A DNA stretch of 55,584 bases from an uncultured virus (IMG/VR IMGVR_UViG_3300042673_000573) (IMGVR_UViG_3300042673_000573), one strand, 5' to 3'; positions 34,495-55,535 are shown, counted from the first letter of the stretch. Numbers and translations are program-made. Notes: generated from the letters alone by a model not told the origin.

Positions 34495-35265
34495 ATGAAA
34501 ACACAGATACTTAAAACACTTGAGCATTCTAAGAATTTAATTATATCCCCTGACATGGATGGTTTTATGACCGCAAAATTATTGGAGCGTTTTAACGGTT
34601 CGAAAATAGTGGGTTCGTACGATAAAAATCTTTTATGTCTCGCCGACGGGATCTCCCCAGAGGAATGCTTATTTGTAGACTGTGACATGAATCGAGAAGG
34701 TTTTGTTTCACTCGGAAATCATATGCGTTTAATAGAGGATGCTATGTCTTCTAAGTCGTTCAATCCGAATGTACACTTCGGCGTGACGACATATAGCGAC
34801 AAGTTTCCTTACGCAACTGCGTTTTTAATTTCGTTCGCAACAGAGGTTCAAACCTCCGAATCTGACCTTATACGCATGGCCTTTGCTGATTCAACTCTAC
34901 GCAATATGGAAAAGTACAGCAACAACATGCGAAACTGGTCAACACGGATGGAACATCCTGCAATAAAGTACATAATAGACAATTCGGACATTGCACGGGA
35001 TAACGATAAGCAAGCAAGATTTGAATATGTTGATCAATCATTTACATCTAAGAGATACGGCAAGGAACGTTACCTCAATACCCTTAATACGGCCCTAGAA
35101 GCCCAGCAGATGAGTTTTGAGCCATTAGTCCAGGGTGTTAAGTATATGGCTGACAAAGTAGGCCGAAACACCTTGGTACGATATCAAAAAGATATAATCT
35201 CATATGCTGAAATATTTACAGATGAATATAGCGTGACATATGACCAGGAAATAGAGTGGAAATAA
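34495..35265 (+). CDS. DHH-superfamily-like phosphoesterase (putative)
   Basis: ISPDMDG (DxDG), FVDCD, LGNH motifs. Confidence 0.5.
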   Translation: MKTQILKTLEHSKNLIISPDMDGFMTAKLLERFNGSKIVGSYDKNLLCLADGISPEECLFVDCDMNREGFVSLGNHMRLIEDAMSSKSFNPNVHFGVTTYSDKFPYATAFLISFATEVQTSESDLIRMAFADSTLRNMEKYSNNMRNWSTRMEHPAIKYIIDNSDIARDNDKQARFEYVDQSFTSKRYGKERYLNTLNTALEAQQMSFEPLVQGVKYMADKVGRNTLVRYQKDIISYAEIFTDEYSVTYDQEIEWK

Positions 35266-36508: not shown

Positions 36509-36697
36509 TCAAACCTTTTTAGCCTTACCTTGTATCCAACCTGAGTGGATACCAGCAAGTGGTGCGTCTATATTGATAGCCGTACCTATTGGTAGCACTT
36601 CCGCATAGCGGTCAATGAAGGATAGTACATTCTCCTTGTTAGGAAATTCCATCTTCTTAGTAGTACCTGTAACGCTTGTTAGTGTTGCTGTTATCAT
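36509..36697 (-). CDS. Small hypothetical protein (paralog of 37414..37590)
   Basis: AGGAGG RBS; MITATLTS..G.TKKM.F. Confidence 0.7.
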   Translation of the reverse strand: MITATLTSVTGTTKKMEFPNKENVLSFIDRYAEVLPIGTAINIDAPLAGIHSGWIQGKAKKV

Positions 36698-37234
36698 TTA
36701 TTTACCTCCTAATATAAAACATAGTGCTATTGCTATAACTACTCCGATAAACGCTCCTATTGGTGCGTAATCAGCGTTCTCATCTAACCAATCAATCATA
36801 TATGTAAATGGGTTCATCTTAGTATGTATCCTCTACGCCTAATTCATAGGCTTTGTTTAGTAGTTCAATAAGGGCTGGTGTTACATCAAATCCGTTAGCA
36901 GTAATCATCTCTGCGAGAGTGTCCTTTGGGTACATCATTTGTTTATCCTTTGTTTGTTGTTATATGGCAAGTATAGCAGGATAGACTGACAAAAGCAACT
37001 CGACACGCCGTATATAGGGCCTATGTCTATGTGATATACACCACATCGATCCCCTAGAAAAAGTTATCCACAGGGTGATGTGTATAAGTAATGTGATGTA
37101 CCTCATATGTGACTAATCTCACAATGTCCGATTTACCCTATTTATACCCCTCAAAATGTCAGACCCCCCTGCTACAATTACAGTATAAAGAAAAACAAGA
37201 GGTAAAGAAATCCTCTAAAGAAAGGTGGTCTAAA

Positions 37235-37414
37235 ATGACTACACTAACAATAACAAAATGCGTTGAGCATAACCCTATGAAATCTGCTATCTCCGAAATT
37301 GGTGATGAGCAATTTACTTTCTGCCAAGATTGTGAAAATAACATTGAGCGTTGGTATAACGATACCGACCCTGAGCGTCTGCCTATGTGGACAGATTGGA
37401 AGGTGTCTAAGTAA
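37235..37414 (+). CDS. Small Cys-containing hypothetical protein
   Basis: AGAAAGGTGG RBS; C.EH..FCQDC. Confidence 0.65.
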   Translation: MTTLTITKCVEHNPMKSAISEIGDEQFTFCQDCENNIERWYNDTDPERLPMWTDWKVSK

Positions 37415-37590
37415 TGATTACTCTTACACTTACATCTTACAATGGTAACACTAAGAAAATGCCTTTCGTTACCGAACAAAAATTGCGTGAGTTTATCTCT
37501 GCGCTACCTTCACAATTAAATAAATCAACAACTCTAAAAGTAGAGTGCGACCTGTTAGCAATTAACGGAATTATTAGAGGGGAAAAATAA
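37414..37590 (+). CDS. Small hypothetical protein (paralog of 36509..36697)
   Basis: MITLTLTSYNGNTKKMPF...; TAATG coupling. Confidence 0.65.
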   Translation: MITLTLTSYNGNTKKMPFVTEQKLREFISALPSQLNKSTTLKVECDLLAINGIIRGEK

Positions 37591-38629
37591 ATGAGTATTT
37601 GGACTAAGTTCGCTACTGTAAGCGATTACCCTAAAGGCTTAATGAACCTATGCCCTTGCGGTCAGGTTGTATTAGCCCCCGCCCTGTATCACGAAGGGCA
37701 ACCTTATTGGGAAAATCCTAATAAGTGTAAAGAATTATTCGAAGGAGTAAAATAATGAGTACCTATGTAAGCCTCGCCTCTGTATGTGGCGCAACATCAG
37801 CAAGCGTTGATGTCTATGACTTAGACCTTAACCCTCACGGCGTTATCTGTTGCGATAACTGTGAGTCAATTATTCTATGCCGTAAGGCTTGGGACTTTCT
37901 CTATAAGGTAGGTAAGTAATGATAAAAGATGAATTGCGTGATGAAGCAGTTAAATTAGCAAAAGAAAAATACGGTGATAACTGGTTAGCAGGTCTATGGG
38001 GTTGCGCTGGTGTATTGCTAACAGAAAAAGATTTTAAAGTTATAATTAGCGTAATGGAGAAATAAAATGAAAACACTTCAAGAAAAACTTGACGCAGTAG
38101 CGTTAGAATTAGAGCCAGTACTTTGGGATTTACTAAATGAAATTGAGGAAAAATAAATGAGTAACTTTTTTATTAGCGGTAACGCATTGTTTTGGTTTTC
38201 TTTTATTTGCTTATTCTATGGATCTTATTTATTCGTGAAGGGCGAATAAAAAAACCTAGCAAAAAGTTATCCACAGGGGTGTGTATAACTAATGTGAGAT
38301 TAATCACATACGACACGCCGTGTTTAGATTTGACTTTTTGACATTTCTTTGCTATACTTACATAGTAAGAACAATTAAATAAAGACATTAGCCAATGAGC
38401 CTAAGCAAATAAGTGTGAGATAAATCACAATGAGCCTTAGCAAATAAGTGGCAAAAATGTCAGCCCCCCCTGATAGGATAGTATTATCACTTAAAGAAAG
38501 GTCAGAATAAATGACACTTGAAGAATACAAGCAAATGGTAGAGGCTCAACGCCTTGCCTCATTAGGTAAAGGCTTAGAAGCCCTACTGAAATCAAAAGCA
38601 ATACAAGAACAAATGAAAGAAGGCAAATA

Positions 38630-38839
38630 ATGTCAGCAAATGTTTATACAATCGAAAACCTACTTGTAGGAAAAACTTATCACTCAAAAACTCTAAAGGG
38701 TGAAATTATCTCAGCAGAAAAGTCTGATGTCTGGTACGCAGATTGCGAGTCTTATCGTGTTAAGGTACGCCCTCACTATCCCTCAGTATTTAATCTAAAA
38801 GATACATACCGAATACTTGCCGTAAAGGTTGGTGACTAA
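38630..38839 (+). CDS. Hypothetical protein
   Basis: ORF with RBS, coupled to upstream ORF. Confidence 0.65.
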   Translation: MSANVYTIENLLVGKTYHSKTLKGEIISAEKSDVWYADCESYRVKVRPHYPSVFNLKDTYRILAVKVGD

Positions 38840-39001
38840 ATGATAAACTCAGTTATGTCGATACCCTGCGAGGAATGCCACTCAACAGGTTTAATCTTTT
38901 TTGGCGATAATGATAATTTTGATGTCGAAACTTGTGAATGCGATTTTGGCATTGAGCAAGACCTAAACCAATTTAACAACTAAAGAATAGGAAATAAATA
39001 A

Positions 39002-39208
39002 ATGATAAAAGTAGAACACAAACTCCGTTTCGTTACCGAATTTGATGAGACTCATCCAATAGCACAAGAATTCTTGCGCCTTGATGAAGTTTCTCAAATT
39101 CATCTTTTAGAATCAATGCTAAAAGATTTACTAACTCCAAAACTAAAACCAGTGCTTGATGAAATCAATGCTAACGGGTCCTACGCAATTCTAAAGGTGG
39201 CCGAATAA
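39002..39208 (+). CDS. Hypothetical protein
   Basis: ORF in operon. Confidence 0.65.
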   Translation: MIKVEHKLRFVTEFDETHPIAQEFLRLDEVSQIHLLESMLKDLLTPKLKPVLDEINANGSYAILKVAE

Positions 39209-39296
39209 TGAGCGACTATTTAGACTACATTGATGAAATCTATGAAGAATTGGTAGATGAATTTGGACACGAATCAGAAAGCGAGTGTACTCACAA

Positions 39297-39488
39297 ATGA
39301 TGACACGAAAAGACTATGTCGCAACTGCTGAAATTCTAAAAAGTTATTCAGATTTAATTGACCAATTTACTTTTGAAGATTTAATCTATGACTTTTCAGA
39401 TATGTTTTTATCAGATAACCCACGCTTTAACCCAATGACTTTTAAAATTGCGTGTGGTGTAAATGATTTAGCAAATAGTAATTCATAA
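39297..39488 (+). CDS. Hypothetical protein
   Basis: MTRKDY...DNPRFN...F..ACG pattern. Confidence 0.65.
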   Translation: MMTRKDYVATAEILKSYSDLIDQFTFEDLIYDFSDMFLSDNPRFNPMTFKIACGVNDLANSNS

Positions 39489-40041
39489 TAAATAAAAATC
39501 CTGAGCAAGATCTAAAACTGCTCAAATTTTTTCTAGGCAATTTACCTAGCGTGTCGTCCACAGGTTATCCACAAGTCATTTAAGAAGTTATTTACGACAC
39601 GCCCGAAATTTTGTGAGTTTTATCACATAGGTTGAGCGTCTTACTATTTGGAATTACTCGCCAGTAGGTAGATAAATGTCAGCCGAAGATGATAGGATTA
39701 CATAGTAATAAGATAAAGAAAGAAGGCAGAAATGACCTCAGTAATAATAGACCAAAATGAGTTTTATCTCATTAAAGATGAAATGCGTTTTTGTTGTGAT
39801 GAGTCACAATTTAAATACATTTGTAAAGCACACGGCGAAAGTATGGGTTGCTACTTTTGCGAATTTGATTACTCTAATGATTGCGAGGAACAACACTAAT
39901 GGGATACATTGAGATTTTTAGAATTGACAACGAAGGCGCAGGTTGGGTAGACTTGGAGCAAGCCACGCCAGATGAGTTATTTAAGTTAGAGGTTGGATTA
40001 CTTAATGAAGGCGCACTATTTACAACTAAGGAGAACGACTA

Positions 40042-40263
40042 ATGGAAAATGAATACCTATACGCAGTAACAGTATCGTATGACAGTAAGCCCGTACATTG
40101 GACAGGGCGTTACTCAGACGCAGTATCCGCAGTTAGCGTGTTTAATAGTTTTGAGGATTGGGGATTTGCTGATGAATACTCAACAGTTAATTTCTCAGAG
40201 CCTTCAGGAAAATTACACACTAAGACTTTCTATCGTGAAGGCAGAAGGGTAGTGAGTAAGTAA
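40042..40263 (+). CDS. Hypothetical protein
   Basis: AAGGAG RBS. Confidence 0.65.
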   Translation: MENEYLYAVTVSYDSKPVHWTGRYSDAVSAVSVFNSFEDWGFADEYSTVNFSEPSGKLHTKTFYREGRRVVSK

Positions 40264-40430
40264 TGGAAATTTTTGAGTTTAATACTTTCATAAATGTCGA
40301 GGCTGAATCCTACGATGAGGCTATTGATACATTTCAATTCCAATTAAAGTATGGAATAAATAAAGATAATGTCTATGTCGCAGACATAAATCAATTAACT
40401 AACAACAACGAAAGCGTAGAGGTATAAATA

Positions 40431-40718
40431 ATGGGAAGCGTAACAGCAATTGGATTAGCAGATAGCGTTTTAGATTTAGAAACACAATTAGCCTATCACT
40501 TACAGGGTAATCACTACCCACCCGTACCACTTTCTATGGTACAACCTTGTATTGATGCTATTGACGCATACTATGATGAGGACTATGATAGATTTATTGC
40601 TATGCCCGAAGGCGTATTCTATAAGGGTATGAGCCACGCACCTGCCCACGCTATTGTAGACCAACACCACCTATCTTGGTTTATTGACCCAGTAGACGAA
40701 TACGAGGATGAAGACTAA
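40431..40718 (+). CDS. Hypothetical protein (HLQGNHYPP motif)
   Basis: ORF with GAGG RBS. Confidence 0.7.
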   Translation: MGSVTAIGLADSVLDLETQLAYHLQGNHYPPVPLSMVQPCIDAIDAYYDEDYDRFIAMPEGVFYKGMSHAPAHAIVDQHHLSWFIDPVDEYEDED

Positions 40719-40847
40719 TGATGACTTTAGCCCCCATAGATAAATGCCCTTGCGTTAAACACGATTGTAAGAATCAAGATGATTACACAAAAATGGAAGA
40801 CACTTGCGAAGAGTGTTTTATGGATTGCGTAGAGATGGATGGATAAA

Positions 40848-41093
40848 ATGTCTGATACAATGAAAACTATGGAATTGATCAAAGCCGATAACTTAACACC
40901 AGACCAACTAATGCTTGGTGATTTAATTAAAATTGGTGATGACATCGTTGAAGTTATTTTTATTGAAAGTGATTCTACTGGAGATAACTATGACATTGAA
41001 ATAGAAAATGAGTTTGGCGAAAGAGAAGTTAATCAGTATAGTTACACTGATACAATTCCTCTCTATGTTTTTGTAGATGAGTCTGACGAGTAA
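40848..41093 (+). CDS. Hypothetical SH3-like small protein
   Basis: QLMLGDLIKIGD beta-rich; start uncertain. Confidence 0.55.
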   Translation: MSDTMKTMELIKADNLTPDQLMLGDLIKIGDDIVEVIFIESDSTGDNYDIEIENEFGEREVNQYSYTDTIPLYVFVDESDE

Positions 41094-41525
41094 TAAGAAT
41101 TAATTTTGTGTGCTTCCCCGCACAAAATTTTCTAGCGTGTCGATGTGAGATTGATCACAGATTTAAGATTTGACATTTTAAGATGATGTATGCTAAGATT
41201 AGTTTATGACAACAAAGAAAAACGCTGAGGAATTACGCAGACTTATGGAACTCCGTAGGTCTAACGCTGCTTCTGCCGTACCTTCTAAAAAGGCTTACAA
41301 CCGTAAGAAATGTCAGTCCGAACTGCTACAATTAAAATATAACAACTAAGAAAGGTCGCCCCACTATGACATTCGAAAACGATGAAATCTATGATGAATA
41401 CTACGCAACAACCTGCCCTGAATGTAAAGAAAATGCCGTTGACGCATATGAAGAAAAGTGTACACACTGCTTACTTGAAGAAATGTCTTATACCTATAAT
41501 GAAGACATTGCCTTAGAGATGAGCC

Positions 41526-42266
41526 TTGGCCTTGACTACTAATACCCTTAAACTAAAAAGATCTAACGATAGAAAGGTGGCTAACCTTGTCACAAAAAAT
41601 GGAAAGCAAGCCGCAATTGCCAACACTTTTGGATTACCTGCTGGAAAGGCTTACTCGTGCCCTGGTGCTACCAGTGTTTGTGAAAGTGTTTGCTACGCAG
41701 GAAAACTTGAAAAAGTCTTCCCTTCAGTAAAGGTTAATCTATTACACAATTGGTCCCTGCTAAAAGACGCAGACTATTTAACTATGCTTAATTTAATTAG
41801 TGAGATGATTGCTGATTTTAAGGCTGATTGTATAAAGAAAGACGCCCCTATGCTATTTCGCATTCATTGGGACGGTGACTTCTTTAACGATACTTATACC
41901 ACTGCCTGGTCCGATGTAATCAAACTTAATCCTGATATTCAATTCTGGGTTTACACTCGTGTTAAGTCTGCTGCTCTCATCCTTAAGGATATTGAAAACC
42001 TGTCTCTTTACTTTAGCACTGATAGTGAGAATGTAAAAACTGGTGTTGATCTAAAAATTAATCAAGGTGTTCGTTTAGCATACCTTGCTAAGAATTTTGC
42101 TATTGGCCAAACAGATATGAAAGAAATGATTGGTAAGCCTGGTGCTAAGTGTCCTGAAAATCTAAAATCAATTCCACTTATCTCAACTAATGGAAGCGCT
42201 TGCGTTTCTTGCGGATTGTGTGTATACTCTAAAGCAGACATAGTTTTTTCTGCTACTAAGAAATGA
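41526..42266 (+). CDS. Gp88-like Fe-S (radical-SAM-related) protein
   Basis: CPGATSVCESVCYA, FRIHWDGDF, FWVYTR, C-terminal CxxCxxC. Confidence 0.75.
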   Translation: MALTTNTLKLKRSNDRKVANLVTKNGKQAAIANTFGLPAGKAYSCPGATSVCESVCYAGKLEKVFPSVKVNLLHNWSLLKDADYLTMLNLISEMIADFKADCIKKDAPMLFRIHWDGDFFNDTYTTAWSDVIKLNPDIQFWVYTRVKSAALILKDIENLSLYFSTDSENVKTGVDLKINQGVRLAYLAKNFAIGQTDMKEMIGKPGAKCPENLKSIPLISTNGSACVSCGLCVYSKADIVFSATKK

Positions 42267-42595
42267 GATAAATGAAAATTGCATTTGTAATGATACTAAC
42301 ATATATAATCATAATTACTTTTTTTTCAAGTCCCCGCTGAAAAGTGGAGGGCCTAGAAAAATCCTAGCGCAAAACTTTTGGTTTGTCAAGCATTTAAGAT
42401 GTGTTTAAGATCACACCCAAAACCCCTCCCGATTTGACATTTATGACATTTTTGTGCTACACTTATACTATAAACAAAACAAGGTAAAACTAAATAAACA
42501 GTTTCACATAGTGAGATTATCAGATAATAATTTGATAAATGTCAGTAGGAAATGTTATACTTAGGTATTACCCAAACAGAAAAGGAAAAACAAAA

Positions 42596-42763
42596 ATGGC
42601 AGTAACAAACGCAACTTACAAGGTAGGCGACCTATACACTTCACAGAAGTCAAAGGTAACAGGCACTATCCAAGAAATCTCACCAAGCAAGGACGGACAA
42701 TCAGTTCGTATCAAGTTAGATGTCAATGGCGCAACACGCTACACAACTTGGACAGCCAAGTAA
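42596..42763 (+). CDS. Small hypothetical protein
   Basis: AAAGGA RBS before ATG 42596. Confidence 0.7.
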   Translation: MAVTNATYKVGDLYTSQKSKVTGTIQEISPSKDGQSVRIKLDVNGATRYTTWTAK

Positions 42764-42866
42764 TCTAATTACTTATTCCTGAGCAAGAATTAAAAAGGCT
42801 CACTTAAATGTCAGACCCCCACGCTATAATAGATAAATACCCCACAAACAGAAAAGAGATAAAAAG

Positions 42867-43289
42867 ATGGCAAGAGCAAAAGCAATAAATGTAAAAATCC
42901 CAACAGTTCGTGTAATCGCAGGATTAGAGGAAGCACTAACTAAGTTAGAGGCAGACTACGCAACACAAGAACAAAAAGAAGCAGAGTTCCAAACTGCTTA
43001 CAAGGCTTGGCAGACAGAATTGGGAAATTGGGCTATTGCTCATTTCTCAAATGCTGAAAACCTCCGCACCAACTATCGTTCTTGGTCAGAAACACTAAAT
43101 GTTGATTTTGACATCAAGACAAAGGAAACAGACTTTCCAACAGAACCTGAAAAGGATTTTGAGGTTATTCACGGAAGCACCTACCGAGAGTCTAAGAAAG
43201 AAATTGCTAACGCAATTCGTATTCTAAAGATGACAGATGAGGAAACAGTAAATACCTCAACCTACAACGCAATCGCTCAGTATCTATAA
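42867..43289 (+). CDS. Hypothetical protein
   Basis: ORF behind a TGTCAG promoter. Confidence 0.75.
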   Translation: MARAKAINVKIPTVRVIAGLEEALTKLEADYATQEQKEAEFQTAYKAWQTELGNWAIAHFSNAENLRTNYRSWSETLNVDFDIKTKETDFPTEPEKDFEVIHGSTYRESKKEIANAIRILKMTDEETVNTSTYNAIAQYL

Positions 43290-43571
43290 TTAGATACAAC
43301 TCCTGAGTATGAGTCTAAACTGCTCAACCACGACCACAGAAATGCGTGGCTAAATAAATAGAGTGGAGAATTCGCCAGGCTGATTAGGGCGATCATAGAA
43401 ATACTATAGAGCGTCTACCCCTTAGACTGGATGGGGGACCAGTTCACACCAACTGTCAAATGAGGTGTAACTACCTGAGTAAGTATCAAAACTGCTCCCC
43501 GCAAGGGTCCTTGACAATTGTCAGTGGCCAGTAGTATAATTAAATTAACCAACTAACAGAAAGAGGCCCCC

Positions 43572-43991
43572 GTGGACCAACCAGTAATAGATAATCACTA
43601 TATGACACGAGAGTTTTTAGAAACAACTCTTGTACAAAACAAAGAACGCATTCAACAACTTGAGGAGCACATCCAAAAAGTAACTCAGCGCTCATATCAA
43701 GATTCTGCAGATAAGAATCGTATGGTTGAATCAATGCAAGAGTGGACCCTTGGAGAATTAGAAAACCAAGACATCACAGAAGAGCAAGCCGAAGCAATTG
43801 CAGAAATTATGGGCTTTGAATTAACAAAAGAATTCGAAGTTGAAGTTACTGTTATGTACTCAGTGACTGTTAATGCTCGTACAGAAGAAGACGCAACAAA
43901 TGCAATTCACGATATTGATTTTGATACTGTTGATTACAATTCAGATTCAATTGCTTATTTGTCATCATCAATTGACAGAGTGGATATTTAG
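43572..43991 (+). CDS. Hypothetical acidic protein
   Basis: AGAGG RBS, GTG start. Confidence 0.7.
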   Translation: MDQPVIDNHYMTREFLETTLVQNKERIQQLEEHIQKVTQRSYQDSADKNRMVESMQEWTLGELENQDITEEQAEAIAEIMGFELTKEFEVEVTVMYSVTVNARTEEDATNAIHDIDFDTVDYNSDSIAYLSSSIDRVDI

Positions 43992-44203
43992 TAGGGGGCT
44001 ACTAATAAACCTGAGCACGTTTAAAAACTGCTCACCTTTTAATTCCCTCAAAATTTTCCTAGCGTGTCGGTGTGATATTTATCACATATGTTTAAGATCA
44101 CATTTAAAAAATGTCCGAATTGCCCTATGTCTGGCTATACGATTTGACTTTTGTCAGCCTATGGGTGTATGATTAGATTATCAACAACAGAAAGAAGGAA
44201 ATC

Positions 44204-45226
44204 GTGGCTCACGATATTGAAACTCAAAACGGCAAGGCATCATTCGCATCATTCCGTGAACCTGCTTGGCACGGATTAGGTACAGTCTTTACAGAAGAAA
44301 AGACAACCGCAGAAATGTTGGAAGCAGCAAATCTAAATGGTTGGAATGTTCGTCTTGAAGATTTAGAAGCACCTACACACTTAACAAGCGATAAGCAATA
44401 CCAATATGTATTGCGTACAAATCCTACAGATAACGCTCAGACCGACATTCTTGGAATTGTTGGCGAACGCTATCACCCACTACAGAATGAAGATTTATTC
44501 TCATTCGGTGACAATATTCTTGACGGCGGGGGTCGTTGGGAAACGGCTGGCTCAATCAAGGGTGGTCGTGTTGTATTCGGTGCTTTAGCATTAGAGCGTG
44601 AAACAATTCTTGACCCTAACGGCGTGAGCGATAAGGTAAAAACTTATTTGCTCATCAACACATCACACGACGGCTCGATTGCTATTCAAGCAAGTATCAC
44701 ACCAGTTCGTGTTGTATGCGCTAACACTCTTAACCTTGCTCTTGGTGGCGTAGGTCGTAAGAAGAATAAGGGCATCAAGCAATCTTTCAAGATTCGCCAC
44801 ACACAGACCGCTAACGGCAAGGTACAAATTGCTCGTGAAACTCTTGGTCTTGCTAATGCTTATATGGACGAATTTGATATTATGGCTAAGGCTATGATTG
44901 AAAAAGAAGTTTCTGCTAAGCAATTCAATGACATCATTCTTGCTGCTTATGCTAAGCCAGAAAAAGATTCTAAGGGTTCAATGAAAAAGTGGGAAAATAA
45001 AGTTGATGTCATCAACGATATTTACACTGGTGAATTTAACGGAATGATTGCTGGTAATGCGTGGGGTGCTTTCAATGCGCTAACTGAACGCCTTGACTGG
45101 TATCGTTCTGCTCGTGGTGGTTCTAACGAATCCATTCTCGCATCAGCATCAGGATTTGACCCTGCTATTAACGCAGAAAAAAATCGTTTGCTAAAAGTTG
45201 TACAAAATGTTATGTCCTTAGCATAA
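44204..45226 (+). CDS. DUF932-family phage/plasmid protein
   Basis: MAH...PAWHGLG, WETAGSIKGG, NTSHDGS, TPVRVVCANTL, IRHT, WGAFNALTE. Confidence 0.85.
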   Translation: MAHDIETQNGKASFASFREPAWHGLGTVFTEEKTTAEMLEAANLNGWNVRLEDLEAPTHLTSDKQYQYVLRTNPTDNAQTDILGIVGERYHPLQNEDLFSFGDNILDGGGRWETAGSIKGGRVVFGALALERETILDPNGVSDKVKTYLLINTSHDGSIAIQASITPVRVVCANTLNLALGGVGRKKNKGIKQSFKIRHTQTANGKVQIARETLGLANAYMDEFDIMAKAMIEKEVSAKQFNDIILAAYAKPEKDSKGSMKKWENKVDVINDIYTGEFNGMIAGNAWGAFNALTERLDWYRSARGGSNESILASASGFDPAINAEKNRLLKVVQNVMSLA

Positions 45227-45268
45227 CAAAAAATTCCTGAGCAAGAATTAAAACTGCTCTCCATAACT

Positions 45269-45342
45269 GGAGTGTTAGCATAGTTGGTTAATGCGCTACC
45301 CTGTCACGGTAGAGATCACGGGTTCAAGTCCCGTACACTTCG
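45269..45342 (+). tRNA. tRNA-Asp (GTC)
   Basis: Acceptor GGAGTGT/ACACTTC, anticodon arm CTACC-CTGTCAC-GGTAG, T arm ACGGG-TTCAAGT-CCCGT. Confidence 0.9.
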
Positions 45343-45495
45343 CAAAATTTCCTAGTAAAAATATTTCTAGCGGTGTGACATTTATCACATTCTTTATTAA
45401 GATGATCAATAATATTTCCCTGATTTAGGATTAAGATGGACTTGACATTTCCCCCAAACCTTCCATTTGTCAGTCCCCTACGCTACAATTAAGAT

Positions 45496-45714
45496 ATGAC
45501 CAAACAAGTGGCAATATATGAAATGAACTACTCCTGCTCTCCTGGTGGCGTTGACTGCTGGGAAGCAACCATTCAAGGTTATGGGGAGAGCACTACCGCC
45601 TCTGACTTTAAGACTGCTGGACAGGCCCTTAATTGGGTGCTTGACAGATACCCTGACGAAATGTTAGAATTAGTAGTAACCTCACTTCCAGCCTACGAAA
45701 AGGAATATGTATGA
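45496..45714 (+). CDS. Hypothetical protein (leaderless)
   Basis: ATG 6 nt after TACAAT. Confidence 0.65.
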   Translation: MTKQVAIYEMNYSCSPGGVDCWEATIQGYGESTTASDFKTAGQALNWVLDRYPDEMLELVVTSLPAYEKEYV

Positions 45715-45941
45715 CCCAAACAGTATTAGACCCAATGCTACAAGACTACTACTCTTGCGACCTTGCTATCTCTATTACAAATATCAAGGCTAAGAATAGA
45801 CACCACGCAGAAGCCGTTATGCAAACCTTCATAGATGAGATTGCTAAAGTAATGAATGATGAACTTAGTTGGGATGACGCCCAATGGGATATACAAGAAA
45901 ATGTTTTCCTACCTGAGTTAGGTGAGTGGCATACAAAGTGA
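45711..45941 (+). CDS. Hypothetical protein
   Basis: AAGGA RBS, ATGA overlap. Confidence 0.65.
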   Translation: MTQTVLDPMLQDYYSCDLAISITNIKAKNRHHAEAVMQTFIDEIAKVMNDELSWDDAQWDIQENVFLPELGEWHTK

Positions 45942-46241
45942 ATACCATTGACGACCTAATCAATGAAATATATGAAAGCAATTACTCTCACTTAGAGTTT
46001 GAGGAAAATATGGGTGGAGAGGCTTGCGACTGCCATATCCACACTACACTTAATACTATCGCACATTACGCAGGAATAGAGGTAGGCTAATGTTAGGATA
46101 TACTGAAACTGATATTGCAGTAATGACAGATGCTATGGAAGATGCTATCAAATCAGGTAGACTCTCAGATGAGATAACAGATGGTTTGGAGAAGGCTATG
46201 TCCTTCTTTGATGGCCTATGGTCAGAAGGGTACTTTGACTA

Positions 46242-46448
46242 ATGAAAGTTAGAATCAGTCTTGAACAAACCATAGATATAGATGATGCTATGTCTAATGA
46301 TATAGGGTTTGAACTATACGGTCCACCTGATATGAGCACGGAAGATAAAGTAGATTATCTAATGGCTCGATTTGCTGAGGACATAGATACTATGGTAAAG
46401 TATGATGAAGTCTTGGGCAACATCTCAGTAGAATACATAGAGGACTAA
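46242..46448 (+). CDS. Hypothetical acidic protein
   Basis: TAATG coupled ORF. Confidence 0.6.
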   Translation: MKVRISLEQTIDIDDAMSNDIGFELYGPPDMSTEDKVDYLMARFAEDIDTMVKYDEVLGNISVEYIED

Positions 46449-46636
46449 TGAACATTGAATCCCGTGAAATTACATACCGCACCATTGTTGAGCAAATCTT
46501 CTTTGAGGACGGCACAGAGTTAGTAGTAACAACTGGCTGGCCTGAAGGTGGCGGTGGAGACTTTGATGTTAAATTAGACTGGGTAGAAGGCGAAGCGCCT
46601 GAATGGGCAAAGGAGTATGTTCACAATGTGGAGTAA
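46448..46636 (+). CDS. Hypothetical protein
   Basis: TAATG coupled ORF. Confidence 0.6.
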   Translation: MNIESREITYRTIVEQIFFEDGTELVVTTGWPEGGGGDFDVKLDWVEGEAPEWAKEYVHNVE

Positions 46637-46856
46637 GTATACATTTGTTTGCGATCCTGATGAGTGTGATGCTCTCATTCAATTTACCGCCAGGGATGGC
46701 TATGGATTCCCTAATGGATCTGTAGAGATGAGATGCCCTTGTGGTAGGAAGATGGCTTATATTAGTATTGAAGATGCTTGGGAGCCTATCATTACAGATG
46801 TGAGCAAGGTCACACCCCGTGAAGTTGTAAAAATAAACACGAACCCGTATAATTAA
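46617..46856 (+). CDS. Small zinc-ribbon-like protein
   Basis: CDPDEC...CPCG. Confidence 0.55.
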   Translation: MFTMWSKYTFVCDPDECDALIQFTARDGYGFPNGSVEMRCPCGRKMAYISIEDAWEPIITDVSKVTPREVVKINTNPYN

Positions 46857-46860
46857 TACT

Positions 46861-47070
46861 ATGGACGACTTAAAAACATTTGAGCAATATGTAAGACTAC
46901 ACCTGCTATCCTTGGAGCAAGACTCTGAGGAACTACAAACCAAAATGGATAACTATTCTAACTATGAAGACGATGAGTATCGTGAGTTAGAGATAGAAGA
47001 TATCTCCACCAATGGACAGATTCTTGCCTGCTACCACTTTTTGTCAGTGTTAGAGGCTACAATAGACTAA
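46861..47070 (+). CDS. Hypothetical protein
   Basis: ATG 7 nt after TATAAT. Confidence 0.6.
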   Translation: MDDLKTFEQYVRLHLLSLEQDSEELQTKMDNYSNYEDDEYRELEIEDISTNGQILACYHFLSVLEATID

Positions 47071-47348
47071 TGATGAATACAAAACTGGACCCACGACTAC
47101 AGAAATTAATTGATATGGGAGAGTCAGGTACTGACATCCTACACGGTGAACTTAAGAACCTAATGCTGGAAGCCGAGAATGATTACATTGAGATTGAGAA
47201 AGAGGAGCGTGAGGGTGGATACTCTGACGCAATGCTTTCTATGGACCGCACACGAGCAGAAGGACGAATGGACGCTCTTGTAGAAGTCTATGCCCTTACA
47301 TATCAATTAGCATTTGCTATCAGTGATAGGATGAAGAACAATGAATAA
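47070..47348 (+). CDS. Hypothetical protein
   Basis: Leaderless start behind TGTCAG promoter. Confidence 0.65.
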   Translation: MMNTKLDPRLQKLIDMGESGTDILHGELKNLMLEAENDYIEIEKEEREGGYSDAMLSMDRTRAEGRMDALVEVYALTYQLAFAISDRMKNNE

Positions 47349-47790
47349 CTTTATTGAAATGGACTTTGATGAGTGGTGTGATACATACAAGCCAATAGTT
47401 AATCATATAGATAACAATGCTTCATTTGATAATGGCTATGGTGGCATTATGTTTGAGACATATGGTGATGAGGTAGAGTTTGTTAAATCTCAATCCCCTG
47501 ACAAAATCTGGATGTATGGTGACGGAGACGACGGCGGGTCCTATGTCTGGAATGGCTGGGGATTTGTAAATAGATTAGGATACTTTATCACTGAAGTTCC
47601 TTGCCCTCCTGATACTGATATTCAGATACGAGTTAGTTATAACTGGTTCTACTGTGAGAACTGCAGCGCTGAGTTTGAGGACCCTGATAATACAATCAGA
47701 GATAAGTTTGATGAGGCCGATTTGGAAAAATGTCCTAATTGTGCTACAATTGAAGAACTACTACTAATAGAAACGGATACCCCACAATGA
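47341..47790 (+). CDS. Hypothetical protein with C-terminal Zn ribbon
   Basis: YKPI.NH, FETYG, VNRLGYFITE; CENC..CPNC. Confidence 0.7.
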   Translation: MNNFIEMDFDEWCDTYKPIVNHIDNNASFDNGYGGIMFETYGDEVEFVKSQSPDKIWMYGDGDDGGSYVWNGWGFVNRLGYFITEVPCPPDTDIQIRVSYNWFYCENCSAEFEDPDNTIRDKFDEADLEKCPNCATIEELLLIETDTPQ

Positions 47791-48107
47791 AACAACTAAT
47801 AGGTTATTTTGCTGTTGACTCAGGGCAGGCTTTAATTGGCGACCCTTGCTACTTAGAAGAATGGAAGCCTTGGGAGTCAGACAAGATTGCTTTTGATGAG
47901 CACCATAACAAGGCAGGCGAGTACGGTTATCTTGGTGCTTGTAACGCTACCTTGACAAAAGGATACGGGGAACTAAACAAAGGTTCTGCCGTTGTATTTA
48001 ACACAGGGTACGGTGACGGAATGTATCCTGTATACGCTGAAATAGAAGACGGCAGAGTACATAGTGTAACTGTTAACTTTGTTAATGATGAGGATGACGA
48101 CAACTAA
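47787..48107 (+). CDS. DUF4241-like protein
   Basis: VDSGQ..IGDPCY...TGYGDG.YPV. Confidence 0.65.
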   Translation: MKQLIGYFAVDSGQALIGDPCYLEEWKPWESDKIAFDEHHNKAGEYGYLGACNATLTKGYGELNKGSAVVFNTGYGDGMYPVYAEIEDGRVHSVTVNFVNDEDDDN

Positions 48108-48469
48108 TGGGAGCAAGAATCAACTATGTCTTTAAAGACTCACTAACAAAGCCTTCAGTGGTCCTCTATAGCCACTGGGGTGAGACCGAATGGCAGCGGG
48201 ACCTTGCTATGGCCCTGCAGCATTCAAAACCACGGTGGATTGATCAATCCTATGCCACGAGGATGATGATTAGTTATTTTATGCAAGACTCAGTCTTAGA
48301 TGAGACAGGGTTTGGAATCTATGCTATTAATAACGATGAGTATGAATTTTGGGATACTACTGTAATCATCGACTTCAATACTAAAACTATCTATGAACTT
48401 GGCTCAGACATAAATGTCAATTGGGACGCTTTCATTAATGCATACGCCCCACAAAATGTAAGCGCTTAG
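48107..48469 (+). CDS. Hypothetical protein (MGAR...LYSHWG family)
   Basis: Conserved-looking N-terminal motifs; coupled start. Confidence 0.65.
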   Translation: MGARINYVFKDSLTKPSVVLYSHWGETEWQRDLAMALQHSKPRWIDQSYATRMMISYFMQDSVLDETGFGIYAINNDEYEFWDTTVIIDFNTKTIYELGSDINVNWDAFINAYAPQNVSA

Positions 48470-49097: not shown

Positions 49098-49105
49098 TTT
49101 GCAGA

Positions 49106-49136
49106 TAGGGAGCGCTCTTAATTGGGTGCTCCCTTT
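49106..49136 (+). terminator. Intrinsic terminator
   Basis: AGGGAGCGCTC-TTAATT-GGGTGCTCCCT then TT. Confidence 0.6.
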
Positions 49137-49159
49137 GGCATGCAAAAAAGCGCTAGAAT

Positions 49160-49960
49160 TTTGATATGATACCATGGACAAACCATTTTGTCAAACCTTA
49201 TTACGATCCAATCCAAAAAAGTCCCTGAAGTTCCTAGCATATCAAACCACATTTGTCAAACCTTATTACGAACGACATCAGAATTTTCCCAAATCGTGAT
49301 ATAATGGTTTGTATGAGTCCAAGATACTTTGCAGAATATGCTAAAAGAGATCCAAAGGGTTATAAGGCTTTCTCTGATCAGGTTTGGAATTCCTTTGTTG
49401 GTGTTACTCACCTTATAGGTTTGTCTAAGTTCTTTTCTTTCACTCCCGCCCTAGAAATCATTAATGATCCTATCAAAGACGGCGAAGCCGTGGGCGTAGC
49501 CCTTGGAGAGATCTACCAATTTTCCCAGGGGATTGAAATAGATACACCAAACAAACCCCTATAGAATAACAAACCTTTTCTCCTGGTTTTCTATAAATTT
49601 CATATTGGTTTTATAAAATAAGATTACGATTATCGACAATTTCTCCCTGATTATGGGAGATTTTTTTTGCATGAAATGGGCTTGACAAACCTTACAAGAT
49701 AGGATACAATGCCCAAACCATGCACATGAAGGTTTGACAGATATGAAGGTTTGCGATATAATCCCGCTATGAAGGTTTGGGGATATGAAGGTTTGAGGTT
49801 TGGGATTACGAACGCCCTTCGTTAAAAGTGCGCCATCCTCCACTACTCTCCACTTCACTCCACTTCTACTCTGTCTAATAATATAATCAGTAAGATTTAT
49901 ATGTGGATAAACCTGTGGATAACTAACATTTTTATGCTATCAAACCTGTGGATAACTATA
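49160..49960. other. Candidate replication origin: CAAACC/GGTTTG repeats plus three DnaA boxes
   Basis: TTTGTCAAACCTTATTACGA twice; GAAGGTTTG four times at 49727-49796; TGTGGATAA at 49902, 49914, 49947. Confidence 0.5.
49313..49564 (+). CDS. Hypothetical protein (leaderless)
   Basis: ATG 7 nt after TGATATAAT. Confidence 0.45.
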   Translation: MSPRYFAEYAKRDPKGYKAFSDQVWNSFVGVTHLIGLSKFFSFTPALEIINDPIKDGEAVGVALGEIYQFSQGIEIDTPNKPL

Positions 49961-50400
49961 TGATAAAATACATCTATGAACAAATTAGACTCATCATATT
50001 CTAAGTTTATGGGCTATAGAGTAGCCTGTACCCAGTGTGATCAACTATATATCAAACCAGATGATGAGCCATTTGTCTGTTTGTCTTGCCTATCAGACAC
50101 ATAAAAACCACGGGATAAAGTTCTCGTATATGGGGCATATGGGGCTATAGGGTTTATATCTTATAATAGGGATTACGAACACTTCTTTAATTCCCCCGAA
50201 ATATTTCAATGTGTTATAATTAACCTATCATGATTACCAGAGATCCAGAGAAATGTCACTATTGCGACAAGGCTGCTATGTATAGCCAGTTAGTTGGCAA
50301 ACCTGGAAACTACACTGTCTCAGGTGTGTGTAAAGATCATCTCATCATGGATTTAAACTCATAACTTGACCAAACCCTCAATCTAAGGTATACTGAATAT

Positions 50401-55460: not shown

Positions 55461-55535
55461 GCACCAGTAGCCAAGTTGGTTAAGGCACCGAACTCATAAT
55501 TCGGCTATTCGTAGGTTCAAGTCCTACCTGGTGTA
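55461..55535 (+). tRNA. tRNA with CAT anticodon (elongator Met or Ile2)
   Basis: GCACCAG/CTGGTGT acceptor; CCGAA-CTCATAA-TTCGG; GTAGG-TTCAAGT-CCTAC. Confidence 0.9.

Follow-up and report, generated by a model that had tools for sequence, protein, structure and literature searches.

An array of PafBC-type promoters in a block of small genes of an uncultured lake phage

Which regulator reads a series of near-identical promoters that an uncultured phage places before its small genes, and is that regulator supplied by the host or by the phage? The window analysed here (the whole 55,584-nucleotide stretch of IMGVR_UViG_3300042673_000573) derives from an uncultured lake phage of actinobacteria, bearing WhiB, related to the Streptomyces BE/BK phages and probably lytic in lifestyle. 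An earlier note on this DNA had proposed that 11 DNA-damage promoters of the PafBC (RecA-NDp) type control an early gene array. The reading we favour, to which we assign a probability of roughly 0.65 from sequence comparison, is that host PafBC would boost phage takeover genes via these 11 promoters as one of several inputs.

Promoters and genes of the array

The pattern TGTCAG-N10-TAnnnT has 13 matches in the window against 0.94 expected, a number reached by none of 100 shuffles, and the spacing is specific (13 matches for N10, 0 for N9, 1 for N11 and 5 for N16). All 11 sites of the earlier note were recovered, one on the minus and ten on the plus strand, each directed into the genes downstream of it as had been described. 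They fit the PafBC consensus reported in PMC8635444, tGTCgg(N10)tA(N3)T, exactly in sequence and spacing, also as claimed, with the TGTCAG form of the -26 element (-28 to -23, with its invariant GTC) at 11/11 sites. Three further candidates were not taken as promoters: a match at 38631 that overlaps a start codon (ATG-TCA-G) and a minus-strand match at 34555 with a poor -10 (TAAATT), both considered incidental, and a variant at 40295 (TGTCGA) situated inside an ORF.

The minus-strand promoter (36970–36991, TGTCAG-N10-TATACT) has an extended -10 TG and a weak -35-like TTGCTT, and drives a series of small ORFs that extends leftward from 36938. On the plus strand, the promoters at 37157–37178, 38458–38479 and 39677–39698 have an extended -10 and no -35; the first has the top score against a PafBC matrix built from acI host sites only, while the others have a CRP-type centre 64.5 and 85.5 bp upstream of the predicted start, respectively. 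The promoter at 41311–41332 precedes a Zn-ribbon-like ORF and the gp88-like gene (PF17338; 41526–42266, plus strand), and that at 42540–42561 combines an extended -10 with a -35-like TTGATA at 18 bp. Neither -35 nor TG is found at 42809–42830, upstream of a 140-aa gene of no assigned function, and this promoter is a candidate for strict activator dependence. Two promoters are dual, one at 43511–43540 (TTGACA-18-TATAAT, with TGTCAG at 43519 in position -28) and one of the DUF932 gene at 44144–44173 (TTGACT-18-TATGAT plus TGTCAG at 44152), in which both boxes are kept in relatives. The promoters at 45468–45489 and 47042–47063 again lack both -35 and TG. Two sites, 41311 and 47042, fall within the 3'-terminal part of a small ORF upstream (of 46 aa and at 46861–47070, respectively). 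Overall, a -35-like hexamer at 17–18 bp accompanies 4/11 sites (36991 on the minus strand, 42540, 43519 and 44152) and is absent from the other 7/11.

Leaderless starts had been proposed at 45496 and 47070, and an ATG does lie 7 nt past the -10 at both; that at 47070 overlaps the upstream stop codon (TAATG), so it may instead be translationally coupled. Three ordinary sigma-A promoters were also found on the plus strand: TTGACT-17-TATACT (38330–38358) and TTGACA-18-TACACT (42434–42463), in tandem upstream of sites 38458 and 42540, and TTGACA-18-TAAGAT (41170–41199), which has a leaderless ATG at 41206 and lies upstream of site 41311. Assembled RNA-library contigs, which do not mark molecule ends, start ahead of sites 38458 and 42540, weakly suggesting read-through from the tandem sigma-A promoters. 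The proposal that the array is wired to 11 PafBC promoters therefore stands for the sites themselves but not for an exclusive control, as parallel sigma-A routes and CRP-type, WhiA and DnaA sites occur alongside.

The promoters lie in a block of about 40 genes (36509–48469), mostly of 40–150 aa and nearly all lacking a Pfam or PHROG family, in which promoter-gene cassettes are clearly repeated modules; the host-takeover module of SPO1 is a parallel to such a block. In Streptomyces BE phages, a homologue of the DUF932/TIGR03299 gene (44204–45226, plus strand) is situated within the terminal repeat. The DUF932 protein model of the window reached a pLDDT of 90.9 with a 134-sequence alignment (the single-sequence model was useless). 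Foldseek gave no match for it at E<=0.001, and the best Z of 5.9 fell on a helical part; a search for a solved homologue found none. The 140-aa and 139-aa proteins matched unnamed viral clusters only. A tRNA-Asp(GTC) (45269–45343, plus strand) inside the array was the sole match of an Rfam search, and six H-type pseudoknot elements occur at gene ends (39494–45260, plus strand; near 39494, 42772, 43296, 43468, 44004 and 45230), 5/6 of them a few bases past a stop codon. Contig depth in one DNA run was 22–24 at 33.7–40.6 and 47.6–50.3 kb, 11–16 between these segments and 6–8 outside, a second run being ambiguous. The array is the counterpart of the terminal-repeat gene block of BE/BK phages; the block probably lies in the phage's first-entering terminal repeat, and its genes are probably early and of takeover type.

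Conservation of the element and the search for a phage activator

The motif is present in 80/80 related loci, although these counts are non-independent because the relatives are close kin with 88–100% protein identity. Together with the window's own stretch, the 80 loci hold 650 sites with N10, 14 with N9, 4 with N11 and 188 with N16, and 10/10 near-complete relatives carry 6–15 sites each, mostly in one block, compared with 1–4 for the reversed pattern. The secondary N16 peak, and five window sites that score accordingly, would fit a reading of (T/A)TGTCA as a plain -35 box whose partner is a second TAnnnT 17 bp downstream. We rejected this very improbable arrangement, since anchoring on the hexamer alone placed TAnnnT at N10 in 354 of 464 distinct sites and at N16 alone in 5, the base preceding TGTCAG is more often A than T, and the ATG positions agree with N10, peaking at the predicted +1, 7 nt past the -10 (28 sites, against <=5 at other offsets).

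Comparison of the orthologous DUF932 promoter, anchored on gene start and -10 only, revealed TGTC at -28 in 55/56 distinct variants (36 TGTCAG, 15 TGTCGG), with spacer columns 36–71% conserved and TTG at -35 also conserved at 88–98%. These data bear on the quite unlikely alternative of constitutive sigma-A promoters relying on an extended -10 or a weak -35, with TGTCAG as an inherited repeat that recombination has spread among the cassettes and that no activator reads. Consistent with it, the -10 boxes are strong, the cassettes are modular, an extended -10 TG occurs in 187/321 distinct sites of relatives and 6/11 here, and 237/322 distinct promoters of relatives have a -35-like box (100/322) and/or an extended -10. 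However, TGTC is kept far better than TG (~61%) at the DUF932 promoter, the variation at -24 matches the A/G tolerance of the host box, and 85/322 promoters have neither -35 nor TG.

The earlier note had found no cognate activator in the window and proposed a search for WYL-domain genes; the 63.5-kb record, which is 51% complete, has no WYL gene, and neither do 22/22 relatives. No sigma factor (0/10) or tyrosine integrase (0/10) was detected in near-complete relatives, no recombinase family among the 81 proteins of the near-complete relative G002, and searches for a PafB/PafC-like HTH found none. With no integrase detected and no LexA box (CGAAC-N4-GTTCG, 0 in the window), the sequences give no sign of lysogeny and do not fit a temperate phage under SOS control. 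We consider it improbable that these are middle-type promoters served by a phage activator of unrecognised, MotA-like fold, one that either came to recognise the PafBC box by convergence or co-opts PafBC in the absence of damage. T4 MotA/AsiA is a precedent (PMC8635444), and candidates exist among dozens of genes without a family, WhiB and two small HTH-like proteins in G002, and one more HTH-like protein in the window. Against this, the box and its variants are identical to the host's own, the activator classes sought were not detected, and the position of the block suggests that it is transcribed first.

Candidate hosts and the sites of other host regulators

The case for an acI host is indirect and includes the lake habitat and WhiB, encoded in 5/5 relatives. 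Contigs of related phages were found in 3/401 Nanopelagicales-order bins, a survey with no control group in which mis-binning is possible, and the phage tRNA-Asp, only ~80% like host tRNAs, gave no direct host assignment. We infer acI as the host. The pafB-pafC pair, seen as two or more WYL matches, occurs in 40/41 candidate acI genomes, and the PafB motif RMFER, with its GTC-reading arginines, is kept in 14/14 sequences aligned to PafBC structures. The same TGTCAG box precedes recA at 30/30 candidate-host loci, and is also upstream of dinB, ssb, carD, a PHP polymerase operon and a LysM gene. Across three whole host genomes the strict pattern shows no enrichment (29 matches against 28 reversed), so the host support rests on site position, 10/29 matches preceding repair- or stress-type genes.

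These promoters are built like PafBC-activated promoters of the host, suggesting that the phage probably taps the host DNA-damage switch and that PafBC may bind and activate them. Host housekeeping RNA polymerase would read the 11 sites aided by host PafBC ('sigma adaptation'), with PafB contacting the GTC of the -26 box and sigma-A the -10. PafBC would then raise the output of a block of small genes of takeover type, some cassettes of which may run from plain sigma-A signals too. More speculatively, the activating ssDNA could come from host processing of the incoming linear phage DNA, or from UV damage in surface water, in which case the host's alarm would feed phage start-up.

Further inputs are suggested by sites next to the promoters. 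The CRP box is TGTGA-N6-TCACA, and eight perfect palindromes of this type (37108–46814; at 37108, 38293, 38414, 39612, 41144, 44071, 45374 and 46799) occur in the array against 0.09 expected. In 19 sequence clusters of relatives, the distances from CRP centre to start cluster at 64.5/74.5/84.5 bp (R 0.73; 0/20000 random draws), and 3/5 distances in the window are in phase (64.5, 85.5 and 114.5, with 69.5 and 101.5 out), indicating that across relatives the CRP-type sites are in helical phase with the PafBC-type promoters. Three plus-strand TTATCCACA boxes (37064–39573; at 37064, 38267 and 39565), two with a facing near-match, we take to be DnaA sites. Six WhiA-type boxes, GACACGC (37002–44068), compared with 1.6 expected, all lie in the array, the window otherwise having none; those at 37002, 38312 and 39596 (plus) are full GACACGCC and those at 39549, 41135 and 44062 (minus) are seven-base forms. 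The CRP and WhiA words of the phage are identical to known ones (for WhiA, GACAC or GACACGCC; PMC10243135, PMC13473873), and are packed far more densely in the phage spacers than on the host chromosome. The cognate factors are encoded by candidate hosts (WhiA in 4/4, CRP with the SRETVNK helix in 4/5), and a WhiA gene is absent from G002. Host CRP, WhiA and DnaA could act at these promoter-adjacent sites as further inputs.

Such density would also suit a decoy array whose main job is to soak up host PafBC, CRP, WhiA and DnaA and thereby dampen repair, division and replication, its genes being run from ordinary sigma-A signals. PafBC-pattern sites are about as numerous in one phage block (11–12) as in a whole candidate-host genome (7–12, half of them expected by chance), and the block also has up to 6 GACACGCC against 9–10 per host genome and eight perfect CRP palindromes against none in three host genomes, numbers that would double if the block lies in a terminal repeat. 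A decoy, however, needs neither a correctly spaced -10, a downstream gene, a leaderless ATG at +1 nor CRP phasing, and PafBC is described as staying on the promoter along with RNA polymerase (PMC8635444). We therefore regard the decoy as unlikely, and titration of host regulators may be a side effect.

Activation by host PafBC can be extended, tentatively and at less than even odds, to a lytic clade on the most abundant lake bacteria that uses an ssDNA alarm as ignition and a logic board of host regulators with no phage activator. Host attack on the entering DNA would activate PafBC and turn the takeover cassettes on, while phased CRP, WhiA and DnaA boxes would report energy, division and replication state to each cassette, perhaps deciding whether infection goes ahead in slow-growing cells.

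Comparison with known systems

Literature searches on the literal motif, BE-phage promoters and DUF932 gave nothing useful among the matches listed, and no paper was found on a PafBC-type promoter array in lake phages. Comparable cassettes are known from Streptomyces BE phages (Stanwilliamsviridae), which also have repeated promoter-gene cassettes around DUF932, located in a 10.7-kb terminal repeat. Unlike the array described here, BE/BK cassettes mostly have ordinary promoters, with few or no such sites in cultured relatives: counts of degenerate TGTC-N12 boxes are 5 for Samisti12, 3 for Riptide, 1 for Karimac and 0 for both Coruscant and Comrade, and a perfect CRP palindrome occurs once in Comrade and not at all in the four BE regions.

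PafBC-dependent (RecA-NDp, recA P1-type) promoters, the basis of 'sigma adaptation', are known in Mycobacterium and other actinobacteria (PMC8635444, PMC11804915, PMC5656591). The phage sites share the -26 box tGTCrg at -28 to -23, the 10-nt spacer and the sigma-A -10, a form that also precedes recA in candidate acI hosts. They differ in belonging to a phage with no detected integrase, in number (11 in 10 kb), in preceding small unassigned genes rather than repair genes, in the -35-like box of four sites and in their CRP-type, WhiA and DnaA neighbours, and their PafBC dependence is a prediction. This prediction would be cheap to test, as PafBC biochemistry and deletion strains are available for M. 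smegmatis and the cultured Samisti12 has a weaker version; acI strains are also now culturable (PMC10202952). It may bear on the link between pafBC and mycobacteriophage resistance, cited in PMC12848934 as reported and unexplained. WYL-domain ssDNA sensors are described as switches for repair and anti-phage defence (PMC12392091), a logic that a lytic phage using such a sensor as activator would reverse.

T4 middle promoters likewise have a factor-specific box in place of the -35 before a normal -10, although under 'sigma appropriation' by MotA/AsiA the activator is phage-encoded (PMC8635444). The only matching activator detected here is that of the host. Prophage promoters under host LexA/SOS control are known from coliphage 186, N15 and GIL01. 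Such prophages, whose link to LexA/SOS is stated in general terms in PMC7617703, also couple phage genes to the host DNA-damage signal, but exit lysogeny by release of a repressor, whereas the present case would involve activation by an ssDNA sensor, and the phage shows no sign of lysogeny. If correct, this would be a mode of early phage transcription distinct from both phage-encoded activators and LexA release.

The promoter motif in the window and its relatives

The earlier note had listed 11 sites of the form TGTCAG-N10-TAnnnT (N10 denoting 10 nt between the two elements), at 36970–36991 on the minus strand and at 37157, 38458, 39677, 41311, 42540, 42809, 43519, 44152, 45468 and 47042 on the plus strand, and every one was found in the window, with all 11 facing the genes downstream of them. 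The array is real and conserved. Matches in the window number 13 against 0.94 expected (≤3 in each of 100 shuffles), with counts by spacing of 13 at N10, 0 at N9, 1 at N11 and, as a lesser peak, 5 at N16. The matches at 38631, which sits over a start codon, and 34555, which has a poor −10, look incidental and were discounted as promoters. Leaderless starts had been proposed at 45496 and 47070; an ATG lies 7 nt past the −10 at both, but that at 47070 overlaps the preceding stop codon.

All 80 relatives analysed (the best 80 of 389 in IMG/VR) carry the motif, and together with the window's own stretch they hold 650 sites at N10, 14 at N9, 4 at N11 and 188 at N16, although these counts are not independent because DUF932 identity among the relatives is 88–100%. 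Sites cluster around the DUF932 start, from 8 kb upstream of it to 3 kb downstream. Each of the 10 near-complete genomes has 6–15 sites, versus 1–4 for the reversed pattern. Circularity was avoided by anchoring either on the DUF932 start and −10 only or on the hexamer only. With the first anchor, TGTC occurs at −28 in 55 of 56 distinct DUF932 promoters (36 TGTCAG, 15 TGTCGG, 2 TGTCTG and 2 TGTCAC), and the remaining promoter is, by eye, a mis-anchored TGTCGC; conservation is 36–71% in spacer columns, but TTG at −35 is, like TGTC, highly conserved (88–98%). With the second (464 distinct sites), TAnnnT lies at N10 in 354, at N16 in 112 and at N16 alone in only 5, and ATG peaks at the N10-predicted +1 (28 versus ≤5 elsewhere). 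These values rule out TTGTCA as a shifted −35, a reading we regard as extremely improbable.

Genome layout and the small-gene block

The virus record containing the window (63.5 kb, 51% complete) derives from lake metagenomes. Portal, protease, capsid and tail genes occupy 1–33 kb, all leftward, and from 37 kb there is a rightward run of small genes without known identity. The closest cultured phages by capsid (~40%) and DUF932 (~53%) proteins are Streptomyces BE/BK phages. The BE counterpart of the DUF932 gene sits amid one-gene cassettes within the terminal repeat, whose length in Samisti12 is 10.7 kb as judged from a duplicated site; the array is therefore presumed early from its position. 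In one DNA run, contig depth was 22–24 at 33.7–40.6 and 47.6–50.3 kb, 6–8 outside and 11–16 between; a terminal repeat in the lake phage is only hinted at because of this intermediate depth and an ambiguous second DNA run. The long, mostly non-coding stretch at 49100–50400 carries short repeats, three TTATCCACA boxes (49902–49955) and two near-consensus sigma-A promoters (49682 and 49734); it is possibly an origin or terminal-repeat end, with depth falling past 50.3 kb in one run.

A gene-end element, CTGAG(C/T)A...AAACTGCTC, occurs on the plus strand at 39494, 42772, 43296, 43468, 44004 and 45230. Among 174 distinct copies, the three preceding bases pair with the loop in 97–100%, through several pair types, and the element is therefore an H-type pseudoknot; copies in relatives number 312 on the plus strand versus 0 on the minus strand, and it has no match in Rfam. 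A single tRNA-Asp (45269–45343) directly follows one copy within the block, separate from the tRNA cluster that starts at 55461. The DUF932 protein (gene 44204–45226) has a confidently predicted fold (pLDDT 90.9) with no clear relative among solved structures, and its near-invariant residues H155, D156, R169, C172, H199 and E295 point to a conserved site.

Regulatory inputs to the array

The earlier description of the block as wired to 11 PafBC-type promoters holds for the motif sites themselves but is too narrow, as sigma-A routes and CRP-, WhiA- and DnaA-type words coexist with them. An extended −10 is present at 6 of the 11 sites and a −35-like hexamer at 17–18 bp in 4; only 42809, 45468 and 47042 have neither, as do 85 of 322 distinct sites in relatives. 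That the promoters are constitutive and the motif an inherited repeat seems rather improbable. Three motif sites are each preceded by a plain TTGAC promoter in tandem (38330, 41170 and 42434), and the one at 41170 would serve a leaderless basic 46-aa ORF (41206–41345, plus strand) whose 3′ end contains the PafBC-type site 41311. On the minus strand, a good sigma-A match (TTGACA-17-TAGGAT, 42361–42389) is aimed back into a gp88-like gene. RNA-library contigs from two lake studies overlap parts of the array, and four start upstream of 38458 or 42540, which fits read-through, although assembled contigs give no start, strand or level.

The spacers, putative multi-regulator cassettes, contain 8 perfect TGTGA-N6-TCACA palindromes, which we take to be CRP sites, against 0.09 expected, 6 copies of GACACGC against 1.6 expected (0 outside the block), and 3 copies of TTATCCACA, presumably a DnaA box, with another 3 at 49.9 kb. 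GACACGCC is given as a WhiA motif (PMC13473873), and GACAC (PMC10243135) is contained within it. CRP is encoded by 4 of 5 candidate hosts and WhiA by 4 of 4; three host genomes contain 0 perfect CRP palindromes, and host genomes contain 9–10 copies of GACACGCC each. Distances from CRP-type centre to predicted start cluster at 64.5, 74.5 and 84.5 bp, with frequent shifts of ~10 bp within sequence clusters. Phase concentration is 0.73 across 19 sequence clusters, which may share ancestry (0 of 20,000 uniform draws as high), and only 3 of the window's own 5 distances are in phase. Such phasing speaks more for co-activation than for a pure decoy; a decoy as the array's main role is unlikely.

No cognate activator encoded by the phage had been noticed earlier, and the searches agree: WYL domains occur in 0 of 22 phage records, a set that includes 11 near-complete metagenome records, a PafB search matched 0 of 5, and PafB and PafC HTH profiles gave a best E of 0.75 or worse. 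G002, a close relative with a near-complete genome, has genes for DnaE, primase, helicase, RecA, WhiB and two weak HTH proteins. Of its 110 called proteins 81 were scanned, and these include no polymerase, sigma or recombinase family; WhiB is present in 5 of 5 relatives, and tyrosine integrase and sigma-70 region 2 in 0 of 10 near-complete ones. A phage activator of unrecognised kind appears about as improbable as constitutive promoters. G002 is also rich in genes for modification and metabolism, among them those for APS kinase, carbamoyltransferase, sulfotransferases, GlcNAc transferases, several 2OG-Fe(II) oxygenases and Hsp20. We consider it probable (roughly 0.65), from sequence, that host RNA polymerase acts with PafBC to start or strengthen early transcription from the array promoters, beside sigma-A-only routes and CRP, WhiA and DnaA inputs. 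Single-stranded DNA is the activating signal of PafBC (PMC11804915); speculatively, it could come from processed ends of incoming DNA or from ambient UV damage.

Candidate hosts and known PafBC-type systems

The host set comprised 41 of 62 genomes matched by an acI 16S probe, with complete ones preferred. At least two WYL matches occur in 40 of the 41 (one in G051 has an internal stop), and in 14 opened loci they form a pafB–pafC pair, with RMFER in 14 of 14; the pair aligns to solved PafBC chains and the PafC checked matches Pfam HTH_PafC. All 30 acI recA loci have the N10 spacing (22 TGTCAG, 1 TGTCGG, 7 CGTC(A/G)G). Genome-wide, the strict pattern shows no excess in three acI genomes (29 matches versus 28 for the reversed control), and 10 of the 29 precede recA, dinB, ssb, carD, a DUF6504-PHP polymerase operon or a LysM gene. 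Searched with a matrix derived from 37 host sites, the window gave 9 matches, 8 of them among the 11 phage sites. Related phage contigs occur in 3 of 401 Nanopelagicales-order bins, which mis-binning could explain, and acI is a candidate host. In acI recA and LysM promoters (L164–L168, L174, L185, L214 and L215) a PafBC-type box is joined with a LexA-like box. In several recA regions GGCGTGT lies immediately upstream. Since acI promoters share the same words, the phage cassettes would reuse the host's combination, minus the LexA box.

Rafique et al. 2025 reportedly deals, at least in part, with pafBC and mycobacteriophage resistance. Phage use of PafBC-type promoters was not found in mostly open-access literature on PafBC with phage or prophage and on mycobacteriophage RecA-NDp, nor in that on actinobacteriophage early, Stanwilliamsviridae or BE promoters. 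The promoter itself is of a known type, an older form being tTGTCRgtg-8nt-TAnnnT, with ClgR formerly proposed as its reader (PMC5656591), and its deployment by a phage appears to be what is new. Using a relaxed TGTC-N12 form ahead of a strong −10, we found 5 sites in Samisti12 (≤1 at other spacings), 3 in Riptide, 1 in Karimac and 0 in Coruscant and Comrade. The terminal-repeat sites of Samisti12 and Riptide are degenerate TGTC-N12-TAGACT-type promoters and a possible bench model. The BE signal is only a lead, because relaxed sites are few and an initial search is reported not to have shown the M. smegmatis motif to be conserved in S. venezuelae (PMC9380542). The dense form of the motif is the lake clade's, whereas cultured BE/BK phages have few such sites or none.
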